The notes beneath the pieces were generated by a model. It was not told where the DNA came from. It was given only the letters and a program-made list of their open reading frames with translations, and ran no database searches. A stretch of 64,000 nt of DNA from Candidatus Omnitrophota bacterium (lineage in GTDB: Bacteria > Omnitrophota > Gorgyraeia > B26-G9), in the NCBI GenBank assembly GCA_043805415.1, contig JAZDHZ010000021.1:8127-72126 (forward strand), written 5' to 3'. This document shows positions 9 through 43,545 of this stretch, in pieces; position 1 is the first letter of the stretch; the number at the start of each line of letters is the position of its first letter. A program made the position numbers and the translations under genes.

Positions 9-2972
9 GTGCCGGATACTGCGACTGCAATGGCACGGATCAGAGTGCTAGATGTGTCTGATGCTACGGTTTATGATGATTCAGATGCTAATTTCAGAAT
101 GCAGGGATTCTTTACTTTGAATCTGCCAAATGGCGGAGAATACTGGGTTGTCGGTACAGCGCATAATATTAATTGGACATGGGGCGGAACATTACCAAGC
201 GCGAAACTTTCTTATTCAACAGACAGCGGTATAACTTATCCTAATCTGATTAACGCGGCAGCTCCTAATGGCGTGGGCAGCGGCGGAACATTTAATTATT
301 CCTGGACCTTGCCGGATAATATTTCAACAAAAGTAAGAGTAAAAGTCGAAGATCCGAATGATAATACGGTATTTGATGTATCCAACGCGGATTTAACTAT
401 TGCCGGACAGATTATTGTTACCAGTCCAAATGGCGGAGAACGCTGGATAACCCGAGAATCTCACGCGATTACCTGGACAACATCCGGCACAATCCCAACT
501 GTTGATATCAAGTATTCTAAAGATAATTTCGTATCAAACATTAATACAGTTGTCACCGGCGCGGTTAATTCTAATTCATATGCCTGGAGCGTGCCGGATG
601 ATAGATCAGCTACAGTAAGAGTCAGAGTAATTGATCCGCGTGATCCAAGTAATACTTATGATGATTCAAACGCGAATTTTAGAATTGATTACTATACGAT
701 TTCGTTTGAAATCCGCGACTTGATTACTAATGAAGAATTATCAACTTTAACCGTGGATGCTTCATCTAATTTAGGTGATATCTGGGCAACAGCAACAATG
801 CCGGGTAATGCAGCCGCGCCTTTAGGTTCTCCAGTTACTGTTGACTTGCCGGCTGGTTTATGGACAGCAGTATGGTCAAAAGTCAGTTTTGGGGATAAAC
901 AGGCAAGCTTTGAAGTGAACGCGGATAAAGCAATAGACACTCTATATATGGAAACTACTGTAATCCATATCTGGCGCGCTTATTCTGAAGTTACTTATGA
1001 GGCAACAAATGATGTTCTAAAAGTAGCTTCCTGGTTAGAACGAGATGGATATGCTGTATCTGGCGCGGAAACAGTGTCGATTGATGTATATGATGATGAT
1101 GGTGTTTTGGTGCACAATATGTTTTCCAATACTCCTAATGCCGCGGGATTTTTCAACTTAAAATGGAATGCTCCCACAGGATTGCTGCCTTCAGTAGTGT
1201 ACACTTTGGTGACAAAAATCACCAATGCTTCAGGAGCTGAATTTAGGACTCCTGCTTCCTTCAATATTACGGAAACTCAGCAATTAGTCGCTACACAACT
1301 AGCAATGGAAAACATGCGTGATGTTACTTTGCCGGCTTTTCAGTCTGGGGTTGAAACAACGATTAATAACGGCATTGCTGAACAAAAAACACTGATTGAT
1401 ACTAAGATGACAGAGCAGACAAATATTATTGATACAAAAACAACGGAAATGAAAGAGTCAGTTGATGCGAGTATGACTGCTTTTGAAACAAGATCTCAGG
1501 TAGCAATTGATCAATTGCAGGAAGGTGCTGATCAGGCAACCGCGGCAGGTACAGAGCTTGAAACCATTGCCAAACGTCAATCCGGGGAACTTATTCTACC
1601 CACAAGCGTACTAACCGGGGGAACAGTTAATATCCGTTTTCGTATCGCTTCCGGGCTGATGCCGCTAATGGATGTAATTAGTTTTGACGGAACAATGCTT
1701 CGAAGCCAACAACCGCTTATTGAATCAAACAGTGTTGCCGGTTTGTATGGTTATGACCTATATATTGATGGTTCTCAGTTTAAGCCAGGTAAAGCGTTTA
1801 CAGTTGTTGTTACTGAAAATACAACCGGAAACCTGCAGGCTGGTTCAGTAATGGTTGAATCAACATCCTTAACCTCTATTGAAGGTTTGGCTTCTTCGAT
1901 TCCTCAGGTTAAATCTATCGCGGATTCGACTCTAGCAGCGGTTAACGCGTTGCAGAGCACATTGGCAACAGGCGGAGATGTCGGAAAGGCGCTTACTACT
2001 TTGCAGGATGCGGTGGATGAATTGCCATCATTGCTTGCCACAGAAGGACCAAGCGCGAAAATGGCTGAGGATATTAATGCTTTGATGGAGCGCTTAAAAG
2101 CTTTTGCCGGAGAAGAAGGATATGATATCTCGGCTATGGTTGAGGACGCATTGAGCAATTCTCCAACAATGAAGGAGATTAAGCTAAGAACAGAAAGCAT
2201 TAAGAGTGTGGTTAACTTCTTGCAGCAGTTATTTGAACATAAATTTGGAGGAATGGAAGAAGAACCAATGGTTTCAACATCGCTGTCAACTGGTAGTTTA
2301 ATTGTCAACGTGGTCGCGGCTAATCCATCCAGTACTGTATCTCAGGTAACGCAGGTAAAAGTTTATTTGCCCAAAGAAGTTACTCCCAATGATATTATGG
2401 ATACAGGCGGACTTGATGTTGAGTTTGACGCTAATCAATCAATATACTATGTCTACAAAGATAGAATTGAACTCGGGCCTAAAGAAGTTCGGGTATTCAA
2501 AGTTGAAATTGAGGATATCTGGATTATTCCGCAGACAGGTTTGGATGTAATGAAACTGCGGGCAACAAAACTCGCGAGCGCGTTAGAATCAACAGAATAT
2601 GCTCAAGATGGTGGAAAACTAGTTGACAAGGTTTATGCTGCTGTTGATGAAGTAATTGCTAAACAGAATGATATTACGCTAAGTCGCGAACAGCATATTG
2701 GTACTTATCGGGCGAACATCCTGATGATTGATAAATTAAAAACCGAGCTTAATGATATGGAAAAACTAATGATTGTTAATCCTGAAGAAACCGGCGCATT
2801 GTCAACGGCAATGACTTGGAAGATTATTATTATGGTGATCTTGTTTATCGGATTACTCGCGGTAGTATTCTTCTTTACCTGGTATCGCAAATCAGGGTTA
2901 ACTCAGGATGTTATTTCAAAAGCAAAACAGTTTTCTTTTCCCGAAGATGGAAAGGATCATAAAGAAAAATGA
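9..2972 (+). CDS. Large surface/cell-envelope protein, 5'-truncated at window edge. At least three tandem ~95-aa beta-sandwich repeats (PNGGExW...W.W/T..G...VRVRV.D), a long coiled-coil region, and a C-terminal TM anchor
   Basis: The repeat motif 'PNGGE(Y/R)W' plus 'SNA(D/N)F' recurs three times and the first copy is already partial at nt 9, so the gene continues upstream. Residues ~430-700 are heptad-like and Q/E/A/T-rich. The C-terminus has the hydrophobic stretch IIIMVILFIGLLAVVFFFTWY followed by basic residues. Confidence 0.6.
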   Translation: MPDTATAMARIRVLDVSDATVYDDSDANFRMQGFFTLNLPNGGEYWVVGTAHNINWTWGGTLPSAKLSYSTDSGITYPNLINAAAPNGVGSGGTFNYSWTLPDNISTKVRVKVEDPNDNTVFDVSNADLTIAGQIIVTSPNGGERWITRESHAITWTTSGTIPTVDIKYSKDNFVSNINTVVTGAVNSNSYAWSVPDDRSATVRVRVIDPRDPSNTYDDSNANFRIDYYTISFEIRDLITNEELSTLTVDASSNLGDIWATATMPGNAAAPLGSPVTVDLPAGLWTAVWSKVSFGDKQASFEVNADKAIDTLYMETTVIHIWRAYSEVTYEATNDVLKVASWLERDGYAVSGAETVSIDVYDDDGVLVHNMFSNTPNAAGFFNLKWNAPTGLLPSVVYTLVTKITNASGAEFRTPASFNITETQQLVATQLAMENMRDVTLPAFQSGVETTINNGIAEQKTLIDTKMTEQTNIIDTKTTEMKESVDASMTAFETRSQVAIDQLQEGADQATAAGTELETIAKRQSGELILPTSVLTGGTVNIRFRIASGLMPLMDVISFDGTMLRSQQPLIESNSVAGLYGYDLYIDGSQFKPGKAFTVVVTENTTGNLQAGSVMVESTSLTSIEGLASSIPQVKSIADSTLAAVNALQSTLATGGDVGKALTTLQDAVDELPSLLATEGPSAKMAEDINALMERLKAFAGEEGYDISAMVEDALSNSPTMKEIKLRTESIKSVVNFLQQLFEHKFGGMEEEPMVSTSLSTGSLIVNVVAANPSSTVSQVTQVKVYLPKEVTPNDIMDTGGLDVEFDANQSIYYVYKDRIELGPKEVRVFKVEIEDIWIIPQTGLDVMKLRATKLASALESTEYAQDGGKLVDKVYAAVDEVIAKQNDITLSREQHIGTYRANILMIDKLKTELNDMEKLMIVNPEETGALSTAMTWKIIIMVILFIGLLAVVFFFTWYRKSGLTQDVISKAKQFSFPEDGKDHKEK

Positions 2973-3100
2973 TTCCGAAAGTGCCTGCTTGGCCGCAGTC
3001 ATTTCGGACTAAATCCCCGCCAAAAAACGGCGGGATAAATCGCGCAGCAGGCTGACTTGACGTCACAAAAAACGTTCCGTAAGTCAGGCGCTCATTTAAG
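2971..3100 (+). ncRNA. Conserved structured 5'-UTR element, copy A (~130 nt), upstream of the F-type ATPase operon. Two stem-loops plus a ~30-nt inserted GC hairpin (ccccgcc...ggcggg)
   Basis: Near-identical to 39431-39530: gattCCGAAAgtgcCTGCttggccGCAGtcaTTTCGGactaaat, then gCTGACTTga..taAGTCAGgcgctcatttaa. The inner helix covaries between copies (ACG/CGT here, ATG/CAT in copy B). Lies between the ORF1 stop and atpC. Confidence 0.5.
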
Positions 3101-3119
3101 AAATAATAATGATTCCCGC

Positions 3120-3142
3120 AGGTGAAATCGAAAATCACCTGT
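3120..3142 (+). promoter_or_regulatory. Perfect 7-bp hairpin CAGGTGA-aatcgaaaa-TCACCTG followed by a G-rich RBS, immediately upstream of the atpC start
   Basis: Seen directly. Its loop (aaTCGAAaa) is shared with the hairpin at 39364-39385 that precedes copy B. Confidence 0.4.
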
Positions 3143-3157
3143 GGGGGGTAATATAGC

Positions 3158-3427
3158 ATGGAGGCTGGGGCGAGTATGGGGGAAAAGTTATTAGAGGTAA
3201 CAGTTTTAAACCCGGAGAAGATCGTTTTTCAGGGCAAGGCAGAACGCTTGATTCTGCCTGGGGAAAGTGGGGTATTTGAAATCCTGCCATTTCATAAACA
3301 GCTTTTAAGCCGTTTACTTACAGGAACTATAATCATCGATGATCAAATGATTCCGATTTACCGGGGAGTTGTTCAGGTGGGGGGCAATTCGGTAACTGTT
3401 ATTATCGAAGAAAAAAGAAGTTCATAG
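3158..3427 (+). CDS. atpC: F-type ATP synthase epsilon subunit, short form containing the N-terminal beta-sandwich only
   Basis: LLEVTVLNPEKIVFQGKAERLILPGESGVFEILPFHKQLL matches the epsilon N-domain pattern (L.V.V..PE...F.G....V.LPG.EGE.GILP.H.PL). At 89 aa it lacks the C-terminal helical hairpin. Confidence 0.75.
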   Translation: MEAGASMGEKLLEVTVLNPEKIVFQGKAERLILPGESGVFEILPFHKQLLSRLLTGTIIIDDQMIPIYRGVVQVGGNSVTVIIEEKRSS

Positions 3428-3452
3428 GATTGATAAGGAAGGTTAATCTATT

Positions 3453-3671
3453 ATGGCTAGACAAATAATATTGTTTCTGGTTTTTGCTTTATGTATTTTG
3501 GGACCAAGCGGAGTTATGGCAGCAGCAGCTTTTGCCAGCATAAATGCTTTAGGTCGGAATCCATCGGCCGCGCCAAAAATTTTCACAGCCATGACAATCA
3601 CTTTAATTTTTGCTGAAGCATTGGCGATTATTGCCATGTTAATAATATTCCAATTATTTCAAGCAGGATAA
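3453..3671 (+). CDS. atpE: F-type ATP synthase subunit c (proteolipid)
   Basis: 72 aa with two TM helices, a GRNP loop motif and the conserved carboxylate in AEALAIIAM. Confidence 0.85.
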   Translation: MARQIILFLVFALCILGPSGVMAAAAFASINALGRNPSAAPKIFTAMTITLIFAEALAIIAMLIIFQLFQAG

Positions 3672-3801
3672 AAGCTGTAAACCAGAAAATAAATTTAGAT
3701 TTAAGTATGGGGGATCATTGCGATCAAATAATGACTTATGAATGATTTTTCGGTATAATAAAATTATTGATAAACTAATTGGATAACCATAGAGGTGCTA
3801 A

Positions 3802-4536
3802 ATGTTTATAGTAAGTCTTATACTTTTGCAGATTTTTATTTTCGGAGGGCTCGCCTTTTTTCTGAAGCATTTGCTTACCCGCAATGTAACCAGCGCTACT
3901 TCTCATTTGCAAGGCATGATCAAAGAAAACACAGATAAAAAAGAAGAAATGCAGAAAAAGATCGAACAAGCAGAAAAAGAGTACGCGGTAAAAATAAAAA
4001 AAGCAAAAGAAGAAGCTGAACAGATCGAAAAGCAATGCCGCAAGGAAATAGAACAGGAAAGAGATAAAATCATCAGTCAAGCCCATGAGCAAAGTGAAGA
4101 ATTAATGTCTCGCGCGAATAAAACATGTGAGACTATTTTAGCTGACCTTGATAAAAATGTTAATGAGAAGGCAGTAGCTAGAGCTGGGGAATTAATCTGT
4201 AAAGTTTTACCGGAAAAAAATTGCCGGGATATTCATCAAGAATGGGTAAAGGCATTAATTAATGAAGGCTTAAATAGTTTAGATCGTTTGCGCATACCGG
4301 ATGATATTACCCGGATTGAAGTTATTACGGCATTTGCTTTAACTGAGCAGGAAAAAGCTGAACTGCATGAGCAGCTACAGGACCATTTAGATTTAAATTT
4401 AGTCATAGAGGAAACAGTTAAGAAAGATATTGTGGCGGGCATAATAATCAATATCGGCACATTAGTTCTGAATGGTAGTTTTGTTAACAAGATCAGGGAG
4501 GTAATCCATGAGTCCTACTCAAGAACAAACGAATGA
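3802..4536 (+). CDS. atpF: F-type ATP synthase b subunit fused to a delta (OSCP)-like C-terminal domain
   Basis: N-terminal TM helix followed by a K/E-rich coiled coil, as in the b subunit. The C-terminal ~100 aa (…VAGIIINIGTLVLNGSFVNKIREV) resemble the delta C-terminus. The RBS is GAGG. Confidence 0.65.
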   Translation: MFIVSLILLQIFIFGGLAFFLKHLLTRNVTSATSHLQGMIKENTDKKEEMQKKIEQAEKEYAVKIKKAKEEAEQIEKQCRKEIEQERDKIISQAHEQSEELMSRANKTCETILADLDKNVNEKAVARAGELICKVLPEKNCRDIHQEWVKALINEGLNSLDRLRIPDDITRIEVITAFALTEQEKAELHEQLQDHLDLNLVIEETVKKDIVAGIIINIGTLVLNGSFVNKIREVIHESYSRTNE

Positions 4537-6001
4537 AACTCATGCGATAAAATTTGATGTAAAGGAAGTCGGCTGTGTTAAAGCAGTGCGGGAATTCATT
4601 GTTTTAGCGGAAAACATGCCTTCATGCGTCAATGGTCAGATTGTTGAATTTGATGCTGGTTTACGCGGAATTGTTATGGGATTTACTCAAGATGAAGTGC
4701 AAATTCTTATGCTCGGGCCAAAGGCAAAAATCCGCGCTGGCGATAAGGTATATAGTCAAGCAAAATCATTGTATTTACCTGTGGGCGATGGCTTTGTCGG
4801 TAGGGTTGTTAATGCTTTATGTGAGCCGGTAGATAGTCAGGGTGAAATAAAAACTGATGATATGTTCCCGGTATTTAAAGAAGCTCCGGGGATTATGGCT
4901 CGTGATGCTGTTGAACGGACTTTAGAGTCAGGAACAAGAATTATTGACGCGATTATGCCGCTGGCTTTAGGTCAGCGGCAGCTTTTAGTCGGAGATAGAC
5001 AAACCGGAAAAACCTCGGTAACAACGGACGCGATCATAAATCAAAAAGGAAAAGATGTTATTTGTATATATTGTGTGATTGGAAAAACTTATTCCGGTTT
5101 ATTAAAAACAATTGAATTGTTTAAAGAACATAATGTTTTTGATTACACGCTGATTGTCAGCGGAATTGCTTCTACCTCTGTCGGCGAACAGTATTTAGCG
5201 CCGTATACAGCGGCAATGATCGGTGAATATTATATGCAGCAGGGTAAAGATGTTTTGGTTATATTTGATGATTTAACCCGGCATGCCTGGATTTATCGGC
5301 AGATTTCTTTGCTGCTGAAACGTGCTCCGGGCCGGGAAGCTTATCCCGGTGATATTTTTTATATTCATTCGCAGCTTATGGAAAGAGCCGGGCAGATGAG
5401 TAAAGCTTTAGGCGGCGGATCAATGACCTTTCTGCCAATAGTTGAAACGCTGCAAGGTGATGTTGCCGGCTTTATTCCTACTAACCTTGTATCAATGACT
5501 GACGGCCAGATTTATTTCAGCTCAGCTTTATTTAACAAAGGATTCCGTCCGGCGATTGATGTCGGGCTTTCAGTATCCCGAATCGGAAATAGAGCGCAAT
5601 GGCCGGCGGTTAAAGGCCCGAGCCGAAGTCTGCGGCTTGAGTTTTTGCAGTATAAAGAACTGGTGGCCATGACCCAGTTAAGAACCACTGAGCTGTCGAA
5701 AGAAGCGGAAAAAAAATTGCGGCGGGGTGAGGCAATTACTGAATTGCTTATCCAGGATAAAAATAAGCCGGTAGCAATGGAACATCAGGTAGTGGATATG
5801 TACGCGCTTAATCGAGAGGTGTTAGATGAACTATCAGTGGATGAGATTAGAAAATTCAAAATTGATTTTTACGATAAAATAGCGGAATGGTTTCCGAATT
5901 TACCCAAGCAATTAAGAGACACTAAGATTATTGTTGATGAAAGTATTGCTAATCTTGAAGAAGCAATTTATTATTACTTTAACCAGGAACCGAAAACTTA
6001 G
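4508..6001 (+). CDS. atpA: F-type ATP synthase alpha subunit
   Basis: Walker A GDRQTGKTS, plus the alpha-specific region DDLTRHAWIYRQISLLLKRAPGREAYPGDIFYIHSQLMERA. Confidence 0.95.
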   Translation: MSPTQEQTNETHAIKFDVKEVGCVKAVREFIVLAENMPSCVNGQIVEFDAGLRGIVMGFTQDEVQILMLGPKAKIRAGDKVYSQAKSLYLPVGDGFVGRVVNALCEPVDSQGEIKTDDMFPVFKEAPGIMARDAVERTLESGTRIIDAIMPLALGQRQLLVGDRQTGKTSVTTDAIINQKGKDVICIYCVIGKTYSGLLKTIELFKEHNVFDYTLIVSGIASTSVGEQYLAPYTAAMIGEYYMQQGKDVLVIFDDLTRHAWIYRQISLLLKRAPGREAYPGDIFYIHSQLMERAGQMSKALGGGSMTFLPIVETLQGDVAGFIPTNLVSMTDGQIYFSSALFNKGFRPAIDVGLSVSRIGNRAQWPAVKGPSRSLRLEFLQYKELVAMTQLRTTELSKEAEKKLRRGEAITELLIQDKNKPVAMEHQVVDMYALNREVLDELSVDEIRKFKIDFYDKIAEWFPNLPKQLRDTKIIVDESIANLEEAIYYYFNQEPKT

Positions 6002-6177
6002 AAACAATTTCTAATTACTAATTAATAATTTCTAATGGAGTTACTAAAAAGAAAAAAGATGCGAAAAATAATAGGCAAATAAGGAGTGTTTTGCTTTTGA
6101 ATTTTTTGATCAGGGATTTTTTAGGATTTAGAAATTAGATATTAGGAATTCTGGATGAGCAGGGGGGTGGCTTAGCG

Positions 6178-7020
6178 ATGATTCCAATAGCACAATTAAA
6201 AGGGGATATGGAATTTTACAGATCACTTGGTGGTTTGATTGAGGTTTTAAAGCTTGTGGCTGCTGCCCAGTATCAAATCCTGGAAAAAAAAATCAAAACT
6301 TATGGATTATATCTGGACGCTTTAAGCAATGTGTTCAGCTGGCTGGATATGCAACAAGTAAGACATCCTTTTGTTAGTGCCAGTGATAAGCCGACAGCGA
6401 TTGTGGCGATAACTACTGATGCCGGTCTATTGGGCGGGCTTAATTCTCTGGTTATGAATAAAGCGCTTGAGCAGGTTTCAAAAGACGATTGCCGGATGGT
6501 TATTGTCGGCAATCGCGGACAATTGTATGTTGAAAAACGGGAAATGATTTATGCTAATTTCCCTGGTGTTGATGATAATAAACGATTACAGCAGGCTTTA
6601 AAATTAAGAGATTATATTATTGAAAATGTTTTAAAAGGAAAATTCGGCAAGGTTATAATTGTTTTTCCGCGGGCTTTATCTTTTACTGTACAGCGGATAG
6701 AGGTGCTGCGGGTTTTTCCATTTGTTTGCGAAACAAAAAACCGTCTTACGAATTTACAGCTTTCTGATATTATCTTAGAATCAAAATTCGGAGATATCGT
6801 GGAACATTTGATTTATTTGTGGCTGGGACAGAAAATTTTTGAAATTTTCGGGATGGCAAGATTAGCGGAGCAGGCAGCAAGATTTATGCATCTTGAGAAA
6901 TGTACTGACCGGATTCAGGATCTGGATAAACAATTACGTTATAAATATTTTCGGGCAAAACATGAAATCATTGACCAAAACATGAGAGAGTTATTCGCGG
7001 CGAGGTTATTAAATGGCTAA
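6178..7020 (+). CDS. atpG: F-type ATP synthase gamma subunit
   Basis: Size (280 aa), position between alpha and beta, and gamma-like N- and C-terminal helices (LVAAAQYQ ... RELFAARLLNG). Confidence 0.75.
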   Translation: MIPIAQLKGDMEFYRSLGGLIEVLKLVAAAQYQILEKKIKTYGLYLDALSNVFSWLDMQQVRHPFVSASDKPTAIVAITTDAGLLGGLNSLVMNKALEQVSKDDCRMVIVGNRGQLYVEKREMIYANFPGVDDNKRLQQALKLRDYIIENVLKGKFGKVIIVFPRALSFTVQRIEVLRVFPFVCETKNRLTNLQLSDIILESKFGDIVEHLIYLWLGQKIFEIFGMARLAEQAARFMHLEKCTDRIQDLDKQLRYKYFRAKHEIIDQNMRELFAARLLNG

Positions 7021-8419
7021 TAATGCTTTAAGAAAAAACATAGTCGGCAGTGTTGTCGCCGTGCAGGGGCCGGTTGTTGATGTGCAGTTTAATAATCAGG
7101 CTGATGTGCCTAATGTTTTTGATGTTATTCATACTTTTACAATTGATGGACTGAGGGTAACTTTGGAAGTCGCGGAACATTCACCAGGCAATATTGCCCG
7201 GTGTATTTCGATTAATTCTACCCAGAATTTACAGCGTAATGCTCAGGCTTTTCCCACTGGGGGGGGCATTGAAATACCAGTTGGCGATGAAACCTATACC
7301 CGGTTGATGAATGTTATGGGTGAGCCGATAGACCAAAAAGGGCCGATAAAAGCTACAGAGACAAAACCAATACGGCTGGCGGCAAAGGGAACGCAGGTTA
7401 GTTTGAAAAAAGGCAGTAAAACAAGTTTTGAAATAATGGAAACAGGAATTAAAATTTTAGACCTGTTATTTCCCTTAGTAACCGGCAGTAAAAATGGTAT
7501 TCTCGGCGGCGCGGCTATGGGAAAAAGCGTGCTTACTCTGGAAATTATTCAGCATATTGTTAAAAGACATAAAGGTACTTGTGTGTTTACTGGTGCCGGA
7601 GAGCGTGTGCGTGAGGGAAATGAATTATATCATGAGCTTGCTCGCCATGATATTTTAGAAAAAATGAAAATTGTGTTTGGCCAGATGAATGAACCTCCGG
7701 GAGCGAGATATGAAGTGGCGATGACCGGGATTACTTTGGCTGAGAGCATTCAGCGTCAGAATAAAGATGTGCTTTTGTTTATCGATAATATCTTCCGATT
7801 CTTACAGGCTGGTCAAGAAATATCCACACTTTTAGGCCGAGTTCCGTCGGAAACCGGATATCAGCCGACCTTGATCTCAGAAGCCGCGGAATTCCATGAA
7901 CGCATTCGAACTTCTGAAGGAACCGGAGGTTCAATTACCTCTATCGAAGCAGTATATGTTCCGGCTGATGACTTGACAGATCCAGCGGTAGTCGCGATTT
8001 TTAGTTTTCTTGATTCAGTTATTGTACTTTCTCGTGAAAAAGTACAGCTCGGTCTTTACCCGGCAATTGACCCGCTGCTTTCATCTTGCGCGAATTTAGA
8101 CCCGGATATAGTGGGACAAAGACATTATAATGTTTCACAACAGGTATTGCAGTTATTTCAGCGATACGAAGAATTGCGTAAAATAGTTTTAGTTATTGGA
8201 ATTGACGAATTATCATCTCAGGACCGAACAATGTATGAACGTGCTCGTAAAATGCAGTTTTTTCTTACCCAGCCGTTTTCAGTGGCAGAAGCTTATACTG
8301 GCAGGCATGGAGAATATGTTGTATTGGAAGACACATTATCCAGCTGTGAGCGGATTATGAGCGGGGAATTTGACCAAAAACGAGAAGACTTATTTTATAT
8401 GATCGGCGCCCTTCATTAA
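7013..8419 (+). CDS. atpD: F-type ATP synthase beta subunit (divergent)
   Basis: P-loop GGAAMGKSV, DNIFRF.QAGQEIS..LGR.PS..GYQPTL, VPADDLTDPA and LYPAIDPL. Overlaps the gamma stop by 8 nt. Confidence 0.9.
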   Translation: MANNALRKNIVGSVVAVQGPVVDVQFNNQADVPNVFDVIHTFTIDGLRVTLEVAEHSPGNIARCISINSTQNLQRNAQAFPTGGGIEIPVGDETYTRLMNVMGEPIDQKGPIKATETKPIRLAAKGTQVSLKKGSKTSFEIMETGIKILDLLFPLVTGSKNGILGGAAMGKSVLTLEIIQHIVKRHKGTCVFTGAGERVREGNELYHELARHDILEKMKIVFGQMNEPPGARYEVAMTGITLAESIQRQNKDVLLFIDNIFRFLQAGQEISTLLGRVPSETGYQPTLISEAAEFHERIRTSEGTGGSITSIEAVYVPADDLTDPAVVAIFSFLDSVIVLSREKVQLGLYPAIDPLLSSCANLDPDIVGQRHYNVSQQVLQLFQRYEELRKIVLVIGIDELSSQDRTMYERARKMQFFLTQPFSVAEAYTGRHGEYVVLEDTLSSCERIMSGEFDQKREDLFYMIGALH

Positions 8420-37863: not shown

Positions 37864-39285
37864 GTGAGGGAGTCTATGAAGCCACAAAAAACAGAAAGAC
37901 CAGAAAGACCAGAAAGACCAAAGCCAACTAGAGCAGATAGCAATTCGCGTTATCCGACACATAACTCTAGACCAAAGCAACTGATACAACCTGAGCGCCG
38001 CCCAGTTGAAAAACACCAGACTGATGGAGGGATCTATATTGGTGAACTTAAAAAAATGAGTGGTTCAGGGTTGATAAAAATAGCAAAAGATTTGAAAATT
38101 GCCGGAATAAGCGGAGTTCGCAAACAAGATCTTATTTTTAAAATTTTGCAAGCTCAGGCTGAAAAAGCCGGGAATATGTTTGGTGAAGGAATATTGGAAA
38201 TACTTCCCGATGGATTTGGTTTTTTAAGATCACCGAACTATAATTATTTGCCTTGTCCGGATGATATTTACATTTCTCCTAGTCAAATAAGAAAATTCAA
38301 TTTAAAAACCGGGGATACGGTCAGCGGTCAGATTCGTCCTCCCAAAGAAGGCGAGCGCTATTTTGCCTTATTAAAGGTTGAAGCGGTTAATTTTGAAGCC
38401 CCGGAAAAAGTAAAAGACAAAATCCTGTTTGATAACTTAACTCCGCTTTATCCTGAAGAGCGCTTAATTCTGGAAACAGATTCAGAAGATGTATCAACGA
38501 GAATTATGGATTTATTAACTCCGATTGGAAAAGGACAGCGAGGTTTGATTGTTGCGCCGCCTTATAGCGGAAAGACTGTTTTACTGCAGAAAATAGCAAA
38601 CAGTATTATTACGAATAATGAGGATGTGGTGCTTATTGTTCTTTTAATTGATGAGCGTCCGGAAGAAGTTACTGACATGCAGCGTTCAGTTAAGGCAGAA
38701 GTTATCAGCTCTACTTTCGATGAACCGCCGGAAAGGCATGTGCAGGTCGCGGAAATTGTTTTAGAAAAAGCAAAACGATTGGTTGAATGCGGCAGAGATG
38801 TAGTTATATTATTAGATAGTATAACCCGTTTGGCTCGGGCCCATAATACGGTTGTTCCTCATTCCGGGAAAATCTTATCCGGCGGTGTGGATTCCACTGC
38901 TTTGCAAAAACCAAAGCGGTTTTTCGGCGCTGCCCGCAATATTGAAGAAGGCGGGTCATTGACAATCCTCGCTACAGCATTGATTGATACCGGAAGCCGG
39001 ATGGATGAAGTTATATTCGAAGAGTTTAAGGGTACTGGAAATATGGAATTGCAGCTTGATCGTAATTTGTTTCAAAGAAGGATTTATCCAGCAATTGATA
39101 TTAAACGTTCTAATACGCGTAAAGAGGAATTATTGGTTGATCCGGAAGAATTAAAACTTATTTGGATTTTGCGCAAAGCTTTGAATGAGCTAAGCAGCGT
39201 GGAGGCAATGGAACTGCTTAGTACTAAACTTAAGAAAGTGGCAACAAACGCGGAATTCTTGCTTTCATTGGCTAAAAATAGATAA
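37864..39285 (+). CDS. rho: Transcription termination factor Rho with a ~60-aa low-complexity N-terminal extension
   Basis: [16 protein letters not shown]; the C-terminus matches the Rho tail pattern. The N-terminus contains a (PER)x3 tandem 9-nt repeat at 37895-37921. Confidence 0.95.
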
Positions 39286-39326: not shown

Positions 39327-39355
39327 TTGACGAAAAGCCTATTTTCTGGTAGAAT
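39327..39355 (+). promoter_or_regulatory. Promoter TTGACG-N17-(TGg)TAGAAT driving the element-rpmE-prfA transcript
   Basis: ttgacg aaaagcctattttctgg tagaat, with an extended -10 TG. Confidence 0.5.
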
Positions 39356-39363
39356 TTCTAGTT

Positions 39364-39385
39364 CACAATCGAAGATGTGAACAAG
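39364..39385 (+). promoter_or_regulatory. Hairpin GTTCACA-atcgaaga-TGTGAAC in the 5' leader
   Basis: 7-bp stem. The loop matches that of the 3120-3142 hairpin. Confidence 0.35.
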
Positions 39386-39430
39386 CGTAAGATGTGTAGC
39401 AATACAAGACATTTATGATGTAAATAATAA

Positions 39431-39530
39431 TGATTCCGAAAGTGCCTGCTAGGCCGCAGCCATTTCGGACTAAATTCGCGTGGCTGACTTGATGTCGCAC
39501 AAATGCTCCATAAGTCAGACGCTCATTTAA
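39431..39530 (+). ncRNA. Conserved structured 5'-UTR element, copy B (~100 nt), immediately upstream of the rpmE RBS
   Basis: Collinear with 2971-3100 minus the inserted hairpin. Stems CCGAAAgtg/caTTTCGG, CTGC/GCAG and CTGACTT/AAGTCAG are retained. The inner helix ATG/CAT differs compensatorily from copy A's ACG/CGT. Confidence 0.5.
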
Positions 39531-39742
39531 AGGGAGGGAAAATGAAGAATAAAATACATCCAGAATACAAACAAAGCACAATAACTTGTGCCTGTGGTGA
39601 GGTAATGAATACAAGCAGTACCAAACAAGATATCCGTGTGGAAATATGCAGCAGCTGCCATCCTTTTTATACTGGCAAACAAAAATTACTTGATACCGCT
39701 GGAAGAGTGGAACGATTCAAGAAAAGATATGCTAAACAATAG
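39503..39742 (+). CDS. rpmE: Ribosomal protein L31 (C-x-x-C zinc-ribbon type)
   Basis: [10 protein letters not shown]...CACGEV...[13 protein letters not shown]. Confidence 0.9.
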
Positions 39743-42265: not shown

Positions 42266-43523
42266 AATTATTATTGAAGGCGGAGTTCCTTTAAAAGGCA
42301 ATATTGTAGTTAGTGGTGCTAAAAACGCGGCATTGCCGATTCTTGCCGCTACTTTGCTGACTGAAGAAAAATGTATTATTAAAAACGTGCCTGTGCTCAG
42401 GGATGTTCTGACTATGCTTAGAATCCTGCGCAGTTTGGGAGTTAAAACCCAAATGCAAGGCAATAAAGTAATTATCGAGCCAAAAAAATGCAAAAGCTAT
42501 GTTGCTGACTATAAATTAGTCAGTACTATGCGTGCTTCAATTTGTGTTTTAGGTCCTTTGTTAGCTAAGCAAAAACAGGCAAAAGTATCAATGCCGGGCG
42601 GATGTATTATTGGCCAAAGACCAGTTGATTTGCATATAAAAGGTTTACGCGCGCTTGGGGCAAAAATTAAGATTGAGCATGGTTATATTGAAGCGCGGGC
42701 TAAACAATTGCGCGGGGCTAATATTTTCCTGGGCGGGGCATATGGTTCTTCAGTGCTGGCGACATCTAATGTGCTTATGAGCGCGGTTTTAGCTAAAGGA
42801 ACAACCTTAATTGAAAACGCGGCTTGTGAGCCGGAGATTGTTGATCTGGCAAATTTTTTAATTAAGATGGGCGCGAAGATAAAAGGTCAGGGAACTCCGC
42901 TGCTTAGTATTGATGGGGTTAAGCGGTTAAATGGTGCTACTCATACAGTTATCCCGGATCGTATCGAAGCTGGAACTTTTATCCTGGCGGCGGTAATTAC
43001 CGGAGGCGACCTGATTATTGAAAAAGCCCGGGCTGATCATTTGTCAGCGCTGTTTGATAAATTAAAGCAGATTGGGGTTTCAATTACTGTCCGCGGCGAC
43101 TGTATTCATGTTAAAAGAAAAACAGCGCTATTAAAGCCTGTGGACATAACTACCTTACCTTATCCGGGTTTTCCTACGGATATGCAGGCACAAATGATGG
43201 CAGTAGCAGCGGTTAGTGACGGAATTAGTGTGTTGACGGAAAAGATATTCCCAGACAGGTTTATGCATGTTAGCGAATTGAATCGTATGGGAGCAGGAAT
43301 TTTTTTAGAAGGAGCAAGCGCGATTGTCAAAGGCGTAAAACGTTTAAGCGGCGCGCCGGTTATGGCTTCTGATCTAAGAGCTTCCGCGGCGCTGATTTTA
43401 GCAGGCTTGGTTGCTAAAGGGAAAACCGAAGTTTCTCGGATTTATCATTTAGATCGAGGGTATGATAAAATTGAAGAAAAATTGCAGAAAGTCGGAGCAA
43501 AGATTAAAAGAGTAAAAGAATAA
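42258..43523 (+). CDS. murA: UDP-N-acetylglucosamine 1-carboxyvinyltransferase
   Basis: MDKIIIEGG.PLKG...SGAKNAALPILAA, and the EPSP-synthase fold length. Confidence 0.95.
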   Translation: MDKIIIEGGVPLKGNIVVSGAKNAALPILAATLLTEEKCIIKNVPVLRDVLTMLRILRSLGVKTQMQGNKVIIEPKKCKSYVADYKLVSTMRASICVLGPLLAKQKQAKVSMPGGCIIGQRPVDLHIKGLRALGAKIKIEHGYIEARAKQLRGANIFLGGAYGSSVLATSNVLMSAVLAKGTTLIENAACEPEIVDLANFLIKMGAKIKGQGTPLLSIDGVKRLNGATHTVIPDRIEAGTFILAAVITGGDLIIEKARADHLSALFDKLKQIGVSITVRGDCIHVKRKTALLKPVDITTLPYPGFPTDMQAQMMAVAAVSDGISVLTEKIFPDRFMHVSELNRMGAGIFLEGASAIVKGVKRLSGAPVMASDLRASAALILAGLVAKGKTEVSRIYHLDRGYDKIEEKLQKVGAKIKRVKE

Positions 43524-43545
43524 ATTTAAAAAGGGAGGTGAAATA

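Follow-up and report, generated by a model that had tools for sequence, protein, structure and literature searches.

The window analyzed here is a 64,000-nucleotide stretch of contig JAZDHZ010000021.1 (positions 8,127 to 72,126, forward strand) from a Candidatus Omnitrophota bacterium. It contains two copies of a hairpin-forming sequence unit, copy A (2962-3099) and copy B (39423-39530), both on the + strand, as are the unit parts, atpC and the spacer sites of the window located below. Copy A lies between an open reading frame (ORF) of 987 amino acid residues and a series of genes recognized by Pfam, atpC and then the c, b/delta, alpha, gamma and beta genes. Copy B has rho upstream and rpmE-prfA downstream, where rpmE codes for ribosomal protein L31 according to Pfam. 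The two copies are about 90% identical outside a GC-hairpin insertion in copy A; in their pairwise alignment the core is near-identical and the insertion is 29 nt long. The 20-mers ATGATTCCGAAAGTGCCTGC and TAAGTCAGNCGCTCATTTAA occur exactly twice each in the 64-kb window, at 2969 and 39430 and at 3080 and 39511, respectively, while the chance expectation from shuffled sequences is 0.00 and 0.03 matches. These two full units and one truncated third unit are the only members of the repeat family in the window.

Copy A begins with the lead-in AAGAAAAATGATTC (2962-2975), which overlaps the TGA stop codon (2970-2972) of the upstream ORF. Hairpin 1 of copy A is of type a (2974-3008) and consists of 13 base pairs with one bulged G, one pyrimidine-pyrimidine mismatch and the hexaloop TTGGCC, the pairing being CCGAAA..TG..CTGC with GCAG..CA..TTTCGG. 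The linker CTAAATCC (3009-3016; family consensus CTAAATTC) is followed by the optional GC-hairpin module, CCCGCC-aaaaaac-GGCGGG and then ATAAA (3016-3039), which is present in copy A and not in copy B. This module, variable in loop and stem, is also found at L003, L005, L007, L009, L010, L022 and L036 (labels from L003 to L048 denote loci from related metagenome-assembled genomes, MAGs, and metagenome contigs). The extended hairpin 2 (3042-3091) has an outer helix of 4 bp (GCGC/GCGC), a bulge, the helix CTGACTT/AAGTCAG, a bulged G, the pairs ACG/CGT, a UC/UC internal loop and an apical stem, and the tail TCATTTAA (3092-3099) closes the unit. The arrangement in copy B comprises the lead-in AATAATAATGATTC (39423-39436), hairpin 1 of type a (39435-39469), the linker CTAAATTC (39470-39477), the extended hairpin 2 (39478-39522) with outer helix GCGT/ACGC, CTGACTT/AAGTCAG, ATG/CAT, the UC/UC internal loop and GC/GC, and the tail TCATTTAA (39523-39530). 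The Shine-Dalgarno sequence (SD) GGGAGGG (39532-39538) and the ATG of rpmE (39542) are located directly 3' of this tail, so that 11 nt separate the end of copy B from the start codon.

The truncated third unit (3102-3147) follows copy A. It is composed of a second lead-in AATAATAATGATTC (3102-3115) and a 13-bp hairpin (3113-3147), TTCCCGCAGGTGA-aatcgaaaa-TCACCTGTGGGGG, with neither linker nor hairpin 2, and it is absent from the orthologous place in L011. An earlier note on this DNA had described two matching sense-strand copies with preserved helices, a compensatory change in hairpin 2, an extra GC hairpin in copy A and, after copy A, a repeated lead-in with a hairpin whose loop resembles that of a hairpin preceding copy B. 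These observations are borne out by the positions and the doubly occurring 20-mers, by the helices of hairpins 1 and 2 in both copies, by ACG/CGT in copy A against ATG/CAT in copy B, by the 29-nt insertion, and by the motif that the loops aatcgaaaa and atcgaaga have in common.

The gene atpC, coding for the F-ATPase epsilon subunit, is the first of the atpC-c-b/delta-alpha-gamma-beta cluster; its reading frame spans 3158-3427, with GGAGG at 3160-3164. The start codon is likely the ATG at 3176, because the peptide MGEKLL is conserved in L011, and copy A would thus end 77 nt before the start. The statement of the earlier note that the copies end 10-60 nt before a start codon consequently holds for copy B and probably not for copy A. 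The note had also placed copy A in the 5' untranslated region (UTR) of the F-ATPase operon, but the unit begins on the TGA of the preceding gene, which points to an intercistronic spacer instead. A consensus promoter scan revealed no promoter for copy A and none inside the units, and the idea that the lead-in is a promoter -10 box was rejected for this reason. Because no promoter was found and the unit starts on the upstream stop codon, copy A is probably intercistronic.

The situation of copy B is different in one respect. A strong sigma-70-type, extended -10 promoter-like site, TTGACG-17-TAGAAT (39327-39355), is located 68 nt upstream of copy B and is conserved in L004, L044 and L046; copy B would therefore fall in the 5' UTR of rpmE. 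At the predicted 5' end of the rpmE transcript there is a 7-bp hairpin, GTTCACA-atcgaaga-TGTGAAC (39361-39382), which is conserved, together with the promoter-like site, in L004 and L044/L045. The possibility that hairpins with the ATCGAA loop form a further module family was rejected, since about 444 kb contained only the two window hairpins and orthologues of one of them.

The distribution of the unit was examined in genomes and metagenomes. A scan for hairpin 1 in one genome per species gave 7 loci in 2 Candidatus Omnitrophota MAGs; at all 7 the unit is on the sense strand and its CATTTAA end lies directly before an SD and a start codon, and the genes differ. The metagenome scan, whose pattern placed no constraint on hairpin 1 or on the 3' half of hairpin 2, gave 32 loci, consisting of 25 real loci and 7 chance pattern matches that were discarded. 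The nhmmer search gave 61 hits, of which 54 are full units with 46 distinct sequences, and a covariance model built from 36 type-a units gave 57 matches in 508 kb. At least 46 distinct units are present in related Omnitrophota MAGs and metagenome contigs, and the family is restricted to a few species of one narrow Candidatus Omnitrophota clade. No match to the units was found in phage and plasmid collections by blastn or in viral contigs by pattern scan. The covariance-model check against Rfam, which the earlier note had recommended, assigned copies A and B to no family: the whole window gave 0 hits against Rfam 15 at gathering thresholds, and at E<=10 both regions gave chance-level matches only (anti-hemB, 14.1 bits against a threshold of 49.5; BSR0626, 17.2 against 155).

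The units share a modular architecture. The lead-in AAUAAUAAUGAUUC, for which AATAATAATGATTC is the consensus across the family, is followed by hairpin 1 of type a or b, the linker CUAAAUUCG, the optional GC hairpin and the extended hairpin 2. Type a of hairpin 1 has the sequence CCGAAAGTGCCTGC-TAGGCC-GCAGTCATTTCGG, and the unrelated type b has the sequence CCCGAATCAGCAGC-TGGTC-GCTGCTTCTCGGG. The linker in its full form is CTAAATTCG, and the GC hairpin, when present, is followed by ATAAA. On the 3' side of hairpin 2 there is either the next lead-in, in tandem arrays, or the tail CTCATTTAA and the SD, and the arrays end with CUCAUUUAA immediately before the SD. Units occur singly or head-to-tail in tandem, with at most three units per array and a period of 96-124 nt. 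Mosaics of the modules can be read directly in the loci, and some units are without hairpin 1 or without hairpin 2.

A near-identical unit is found upstream of at least 15 functionally unrelated genes. The downstream genes assigned by Pfam code for ribosomal proteins L31, S16 and L9, ATPase epsilon, P-II (at several loci), the ammonium transporter AmtB, S-adenosylhomocysteine hydrolase (after metK), SAICAR synthetase (PurC), lumazine synthase (RibH), a FabZ-like dehydratase, an NAD-dependent epimerase, a HAD phosphatase, a class-I glutamine amidotransferase and a Fis-type helix-turn-helix protein, while two downstream proteins have no Pfam match. The earlier note had tied the element to the F-ATPase operon and had proposed to look at the genes downstream of other copies; with this functionally diverse set, the element is specific neither to the F-ATPase operon nor to rpmE. 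Among 35 non-identical arrays, 30 are co-oriented with the neighboring gene or genes. Three of the five exceptions are units inside a second repeat of about 190 nt, and the other two are mutual orthologues located just past the stop codon of a gene on the opposite strand. In 12 arrays the beginning is -10 to +7 nt from the stop codon upstream, and in 17 arrays the end is 4-15 nt before a start codon.

The second repeat, which bears terminal inverted repeats (TIRs), encloses one unit at four loci. It resembles a miniature inverted-repeat transposable element (MITE), is found in the relatives L019, L021, L025 and L028, and has the inverted termini GGCAAAAA and TTTTTGCC. It possesses its own hairpin, CCTGAGCCTGCA-TCG-TGCAGGCTCAGC, and its center is occupied by one of the units studied here or by a different small hairpin. 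The latter arrangement is seen on the minus strand of L011 (about 2810-2935 in reverse-complement coordinates).

The proposed structure was evaluated on the 36 type-a units. In the alignment 94.2% of the cells are paired, compared with 24-36% when the 3' partners are slid by 1-3 columns. Changes on both sides occur in 14 of the 34 pairs (73 cells); in 500 shuffles such values were reached 0 times. For the helix of hairpin 1 (helix 2 of the alignment) 97.4% of the cells are paired and five pairs have double changes. RNAalifold independently predicts hairpin 1, the outer helix and hairpin 2, with 13 covarying pairs. The pair in hairpin 2 that distinguishes ACG/CGT from ATG/CAT has the family-wide states CG in 30 units, UA in 5 and UG in 1. 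The outer 4-bp helix of hairpin 2 varies with retained pairing: at least 10 different complementary 4-mers are found, also at orthologous rpsP and rpmE sites, including GCGC/GCGC, GAGC/GCTC, GCAC/GTGC, GTGT/ACAC, GTGC/GCAC, GAAC/GTTC, GAGT/ACTC, CACA/TGTG, CAGA/TCTG and GCCA/TGGC. Because of this strong covariation (14 of 34 pairs), the fold is under selection. Covariation in further homologues was a check proposed in the earlier note, which took covariation and a DNA-level repeat to be mutually exclusive; here covariation and dispersal are both true.

The strand on which the fold acts was assessed from pair types that only one strand allows. G.U cells, possible on the + strand only, number 25, and A.C cells, which would be paired on the minus strand only, number 14; this preference for the + strand is a weak one, and the cells cannot be counted as independent.

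A graded series of relatives, obtained via homologues of Rho, allows the same small sites to be compared. In the rho-rpmE spacer the window and L004 have type-a hairpin 1 and hairpin 2, L046 has two tandem units, and L044/L045 have type-b hairpin 1, the GC hairpin and hairpin 2. In L048 GC hairpins and hairpin 2 are present without hairpin 1. In L047 a GC hairpin and an unrelated AU-rich hairpin are found between the same linker, 4-bp helix and tail, and L040, L041 and L043 have no unit. The murA-rpsP spacer ranges in length from 13 to about 250 nt across the relatives. In L041 and L043 it consists of 13 nt, a stop codon and then the SD, and in the window (43519-43545) it is also empty, with 24 nt in the form TAA ATTTAAAAAGGGAGG..GTG. 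One unit is found there in L044 (11636-11747), two units in L004 (5549-5770) and L046 (11632-11840), and one diverged unit in L040 (15414-15662). Units are thus gained, lost, duplicated and exchanged in their modules at the same small sites in close relatives.

Two further details were seen at the murA-rpsP junction. In L004 the 3' end of murA (AGAGTAAAAGAAT) is duplicated after the first unit of the spacer. In L047 (12160-12204) rpsP has no member of the repeat family, and a small unrelated hairpin, ATTTCGCGAAGCGAAAT, is located immediately before the SD; hairpins abutting the SD may for this reason be a more general habit of these genomes.

The effect of the units on expression signals was considered in silico. 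Accessibility was computed with clean unit boundaries, from the tail to six nt past the start codon (n = 17). The mean unpaired probability is 0.56 with the native units and 0.46 with dinucleotide-shuffled units (Wilcoxon p = 0.004), and the native value comes near the 0.67 obtained without any upstream unit. The ribosome-binding site is accordingly predicted to stay open beside native units. An apparent sequestration of the SD by CUCC in the 3' strand of hairpin 2 arose only in inputs that cut off the 5' strand of this hairpin, and it disappeared with clean boundaries. The consensus scan found no terminator in copy A or copy B. The GC hairpin was rejected as a terminator, since there is no T-run after it on the + strand; a weak anti-hemB terminator-like match lies on the minus strand. 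A tRNA-like cloverleaf for copy A was likewise rejected, as ARAGORN found 0 genes in the window and most units have no third hairpin. Hammerhead, k-turn and CsrA (GGA-loop) signatures did not fit in an informal check by eye.

From these results it is probable, in our judgment with moderate confidence, that copies A and B are members of a new family of small modular, hairpin-forming interspersed repeats that lie in mRNA spacers, are co-transcribed and fold on themselves. The family has not been described previously; its kind, the bacterial small interspersed repeats, is already known, and the sense placement abutting the SD is unusual. The units would have spread by insertion, by recombination via the conserved single-stranded junction motifs, or by both, and judging from their positions they would be transcribed together with the flanking genes. 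Each unit is expected to fold on itself and to leave the ribosome-binding site accessible, and with such a self-contained fold insertions before the SD could therefore be tolerated. The stop-to-SD geometry might be explained by ancestral spacers that were perhaps as short as those of L041 and L043, which hold a stop, an SD and a start. An insertion tolerated in so short a spacer would have to fall between the stop codon and the SD. It may further be suggested, less firmly, that the AU-rich lead-in between stable irregular stems forms a processing or end-protection module in the manner of REP, ERIC and phage T7 RNase III sites. Such a module could alter the stability or relative expression of the neighboring cistrons and would not involve ligand sensing. 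This arrangement of stems around the AU-rich lead-in resembles sites at which intercistronic RNA is processed and its ends are protected, and by this analogy altered processing or stability of the mRNA would be the most likely consequence.

Several observations weigh against this interpretation. Positional orthologues among the units are mutual nearest neighbors with 92.5-93.4% identity, while identity at four-fold degenerate sites in the genes beside them is no more than 44-60%. The identity of the units is far above the expectation for neutral passengers. Because of this difference their conservation calls for purifying selection on the whole sequence, recognition by a factor, gene conversion or recent transfer among co-occurring species. 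The invariance of the lead-in, the linker and CTGACTT is partly a matter of ascertainment, since these motifs were in the scan pattern. The minus strand folds better in silico, because the conserved UC/UC internal loops become tandem G.A pairs there, and this weakens the strand argument as regards RNA or single-stranded DNA. No transposase, no long TIRs and no clear target-site duplication were found. The only inverted termini of the unit are about 5-6 nt long, AATGA/TCATT, a helix that is 80.6% paired and shows a change on both sides in 1 of 5 pairs (1 of 36 sequences), and they fall short of the TIRs, usually of at least 10 bp, that characterize MITEs. The units start after TAA and end in TAA, which fits a TAA duplication, but TAA is also a stop codon and is common in AT-rich spacers. 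Finally, the placement upstream of genes is unlike that of the typical parasitic repeats BOX, RUP and SPRITE, which accumulate between convergent genes (PMC3049150).

The earlier note had proposed a cis-regulatory RNA, either a riboswitch or a protein-binding leader. Its description of a structured, covarying element on the sense strand before start codons is retained; a gene-specific leader is excluded, and a riboswitch sensing a metabolite or an ion is very unlikely. Such a riboswitch would be suggested by a multi-helix RNA that covaries, directly precedes start codons and matches no Rfam family, and by the several copies before the nitrogen-assimilation genes for P-II and AmtB. However, the downstream genes are functionally unrelated, the copies are near-identical and form arrays of up to three units, and the modules are optional or swappable (hairpin 1 of type a or b, units without hairpin 1 or 2). 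Moreover, there is neither a terminator nor an anti-SD helix, the SD being accessible by default, and the distribution is restricted to few species. Even less credible is a small peptide that would start at the lead-in ATG, with an ATGA overlap coupling its translation to the upstream gene, as has been proposed for MIRU. The lead-in ATGA does overlap the upstream stop codon in copy A, and the ORF from this ATG has 20 codons in copy B and 28 in copy A. In other copies, however, the ATG is replaced by AAG, AAC or ATT or is shifted, the unit periods of 96-124 nt are not multiples of 3, and the ORF of copy B stops within hairpin 2. The differences between copies A and B would all be non-synonymous, and the substitutions follow base-pairing and not codons.

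High conservation and a position upstream of genes keep a factor-bound cassette in play. It is conceivable, though unlikely, that the units are a clade-specific mRNA "punctuation and control" cassette in which AAUAAUAAUGAUUC, CUAAAUUCG, CUCAUUUAA, the UC/UC loops and the bulges are read by a dedicated RNA-binding protein or RNase. If this is true, the factor would set the processing, stability or translation of the top-expressed operons, namely those for ribosomal proteins, ATP synthase, P-II/AmtB and the S-adenosylmethionine (SAM) cycle. The operator would then spread like a mobile element and yet be held at 93% identity while neutral sites are saturated. We are more doubtful of the proposal that the cassette is the binding platform of a trans-acting factor, an RNA-binding protein or dedicated RNase, that coordinates highly expressed genes as a post-transcriptional regulon (ribosomal proteins, ATP synthase, nitrogen assimilation, SAM cycle). 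Consistent with it, the unpaired motifs (the lead-in, CUAAAUUCG, CUCAUUUAA, the UC/UC loops, the bulged G and the pyrimidine-pyrimidine mismatch) are conserved while the surrounding stems covary. The layout of linker, 4-bp helix, hairpin and tail is also kept at rpmE and rpsP despite wholly replaced hairpin sequences (L047, L040, L044). Identity reaches 93% between orthologous copies, compared with about 50% at neutral sites, and the element adjoins the SD in every case. A precedent is provided by the TAACTGA repeats of Beggiatoaceae, which are start-codon-proximal and were proposed as a regulator site (PMC4679880). No candidate factor was found, however, and apart from probably high expression the genes share no obvious theme. 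The range from 0 to 3 copies per site among close relatives would be odd for a tuned operator, part of the motif invariance is ascertainment, and the ribosome-binding site is predicted to be open by default. Less probable again is a purely DNA-level element, whose single-stranded DNA hairpins would be recognized by an HUH enzyme (IS200/IS605, REP-RAYT) or by a recombinase of the integron attC type, the RNA fold being a by-product. The ends of IS608 and attC sites are imperfect hairpins with extrahelical bases and mismatches, and the units are likewise imperfect hairpins in which such bases and mismatches are conserved. They also have no long TIRs, run all in one direction, and undergo cassette-like replacement at fixed junctions, also within another repeat; folding of the minus strand is no worse than that of the plus strand, and G.U cells on the + strand exceed A.C cells by only 25 to 14. 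On the other hand, the unit ends track translation signals, the stop codon and the SD, and no other DNA feature. No Y1/HUH or integrase gene adjoins the units in the loci read, where no systematic search was made, and the flanking genes are syntenic housekeeping genes and not cassettes.

The family of co-transcribed spacer repeats that we favor may be compared with known systems. Like the BOX elements of Streptococcus pneumoniae (boxA-boxB(n)-boxC), the units are short, non-coding repeats built of modules; the number of inner modules varies, and secondary structure is extensive (PMC3049150). BOX elements are also co-transcribed with their neighbors, as the Omnitrophota units presumably are, vary in length between strains and are found in few related species (PMC3049150). 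The layout terminal-internal(n)-terminal recurs here as a lead-in, one to three blocks of hairpin 1, linker, (GC hairpin) and hairpin 2, and a tail, the architecture being analogous only. The Omnitrophota units differ in lying upstream of genes, 30 of 35 in the sense direction, and in ending at the SD, and they have no sequence similarity to BOX, homology not having been tested separately. MIRU elements are similar in forming tandem units in operon intergenic spacers, oriented with the genes and placed at the translation start region with preservation of downstream expression (PMC12548453). MIRU have been proposed to act through an in-frame ORF of their own whose stop overlaps the start of the downstream gene, with coupling at -4 nt, whereas the Omnitrophota units have no conserved ORF. 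Each of them consists of covarying hairpins that leave the native SD in place.

The REP and BIME elements are described in summary as palindromic intergenic repeats (PMC2817692). As in REP/BIME, ERIC and Correia elements, the units are intergenic palindromic mosaics with puzzlingly high sequence conservation. These known elements are abundant, are transcribed as part of mRNAs and serve there as barriers to or targets of nucleases (3' exonuclease, RNase E, RNase III). In REPs, which are imperfect palindromes of 20-40 nt with a GTAG-type head, orientation alternates within a BIME; most lie after genes, and a RAYT transposase is linked to them. Long TIRs characterize Correia and ERIC elements. 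The Omnitrophota arrays, in contrast, are all head-to-tail, and the units lie before genes and have neither long TIRs nor a GTAG-type head; no link to RAYT was found, although RAYT genes were not searched for systematically. The TAACTGA direct repeats of Beggiatoaceae, Cyanobacteria and Bacteroidetes also lie a few nt upstream of the starts of unrelated genes, including ribosomal protein genes (PMC4679880). They are arrays of an unstructured heptamer, unlike the units of about 100 nt with covarying helices. The RNase III sites of phage T7 are irregular intercistronic hairpins of about 20 bp, and their cleavage leaves protective stem-loops at the mRNA ends. The likeness consists in irregular hairpins of this size with internal loops, located at cistron junctions immediately before the following ribosome-binding site. 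The two are unrelated in sequence, and the T7 sites are single-copy at each junction and not a dispersed chromosomal repeat.

A few cultivated bacteria have well-studied small interspersed repeats; in the Omnitrophota, which have no cultured members, such repeats are, to our knowledge, essentially undescribed. The present family is unusual among small repeats in being almost only sense, in extending from the stop codon or promoter to the SD of housekeeping genes, in its covarying multi-hairpin fold and in an identity of about 93% despite saturated synonymous sites. It may serve as a warning in annotation, since a structure that covaries, has no Rfam match and precedes an operon can be a dispersed repeat and not a riboswitch. 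The family would provide a natural set of self-folding cassettes whose insertion beside a ribosome-binding site leaves that site open. Should a factor read the conserved loops, they would offer an entry to post-transcriptional control in an uncultivated phylum.

A few observations concern the genes that flank the two copies. The ORF of 987 residues upstream of copy A (9-2972) has no Pfam match and 89% amino acid identity to its counterpart in L011, and it has a hydrophobic stretch near the C-terminus, directly upstream of copy A. The F-type ATPase cluster (3158-8419) codes for epsilon, c, a b/delta fusion, alpha, gamma and beta, with no a-subunit ORF inside, and includes a gap of about 130 nt (3672-3801) with no assigned ORF. 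Look-ups of the exact L31 and atpC proteins of the window gave no record. The longest ORF for Rho, upstream of copy B (37864-39285), begins with GTG and has 473 residues. The NCBI product for the identical protein (P0006) has 417 residues, and for this reason the N-terminal 56 residues of the longer ORF may not be translated.

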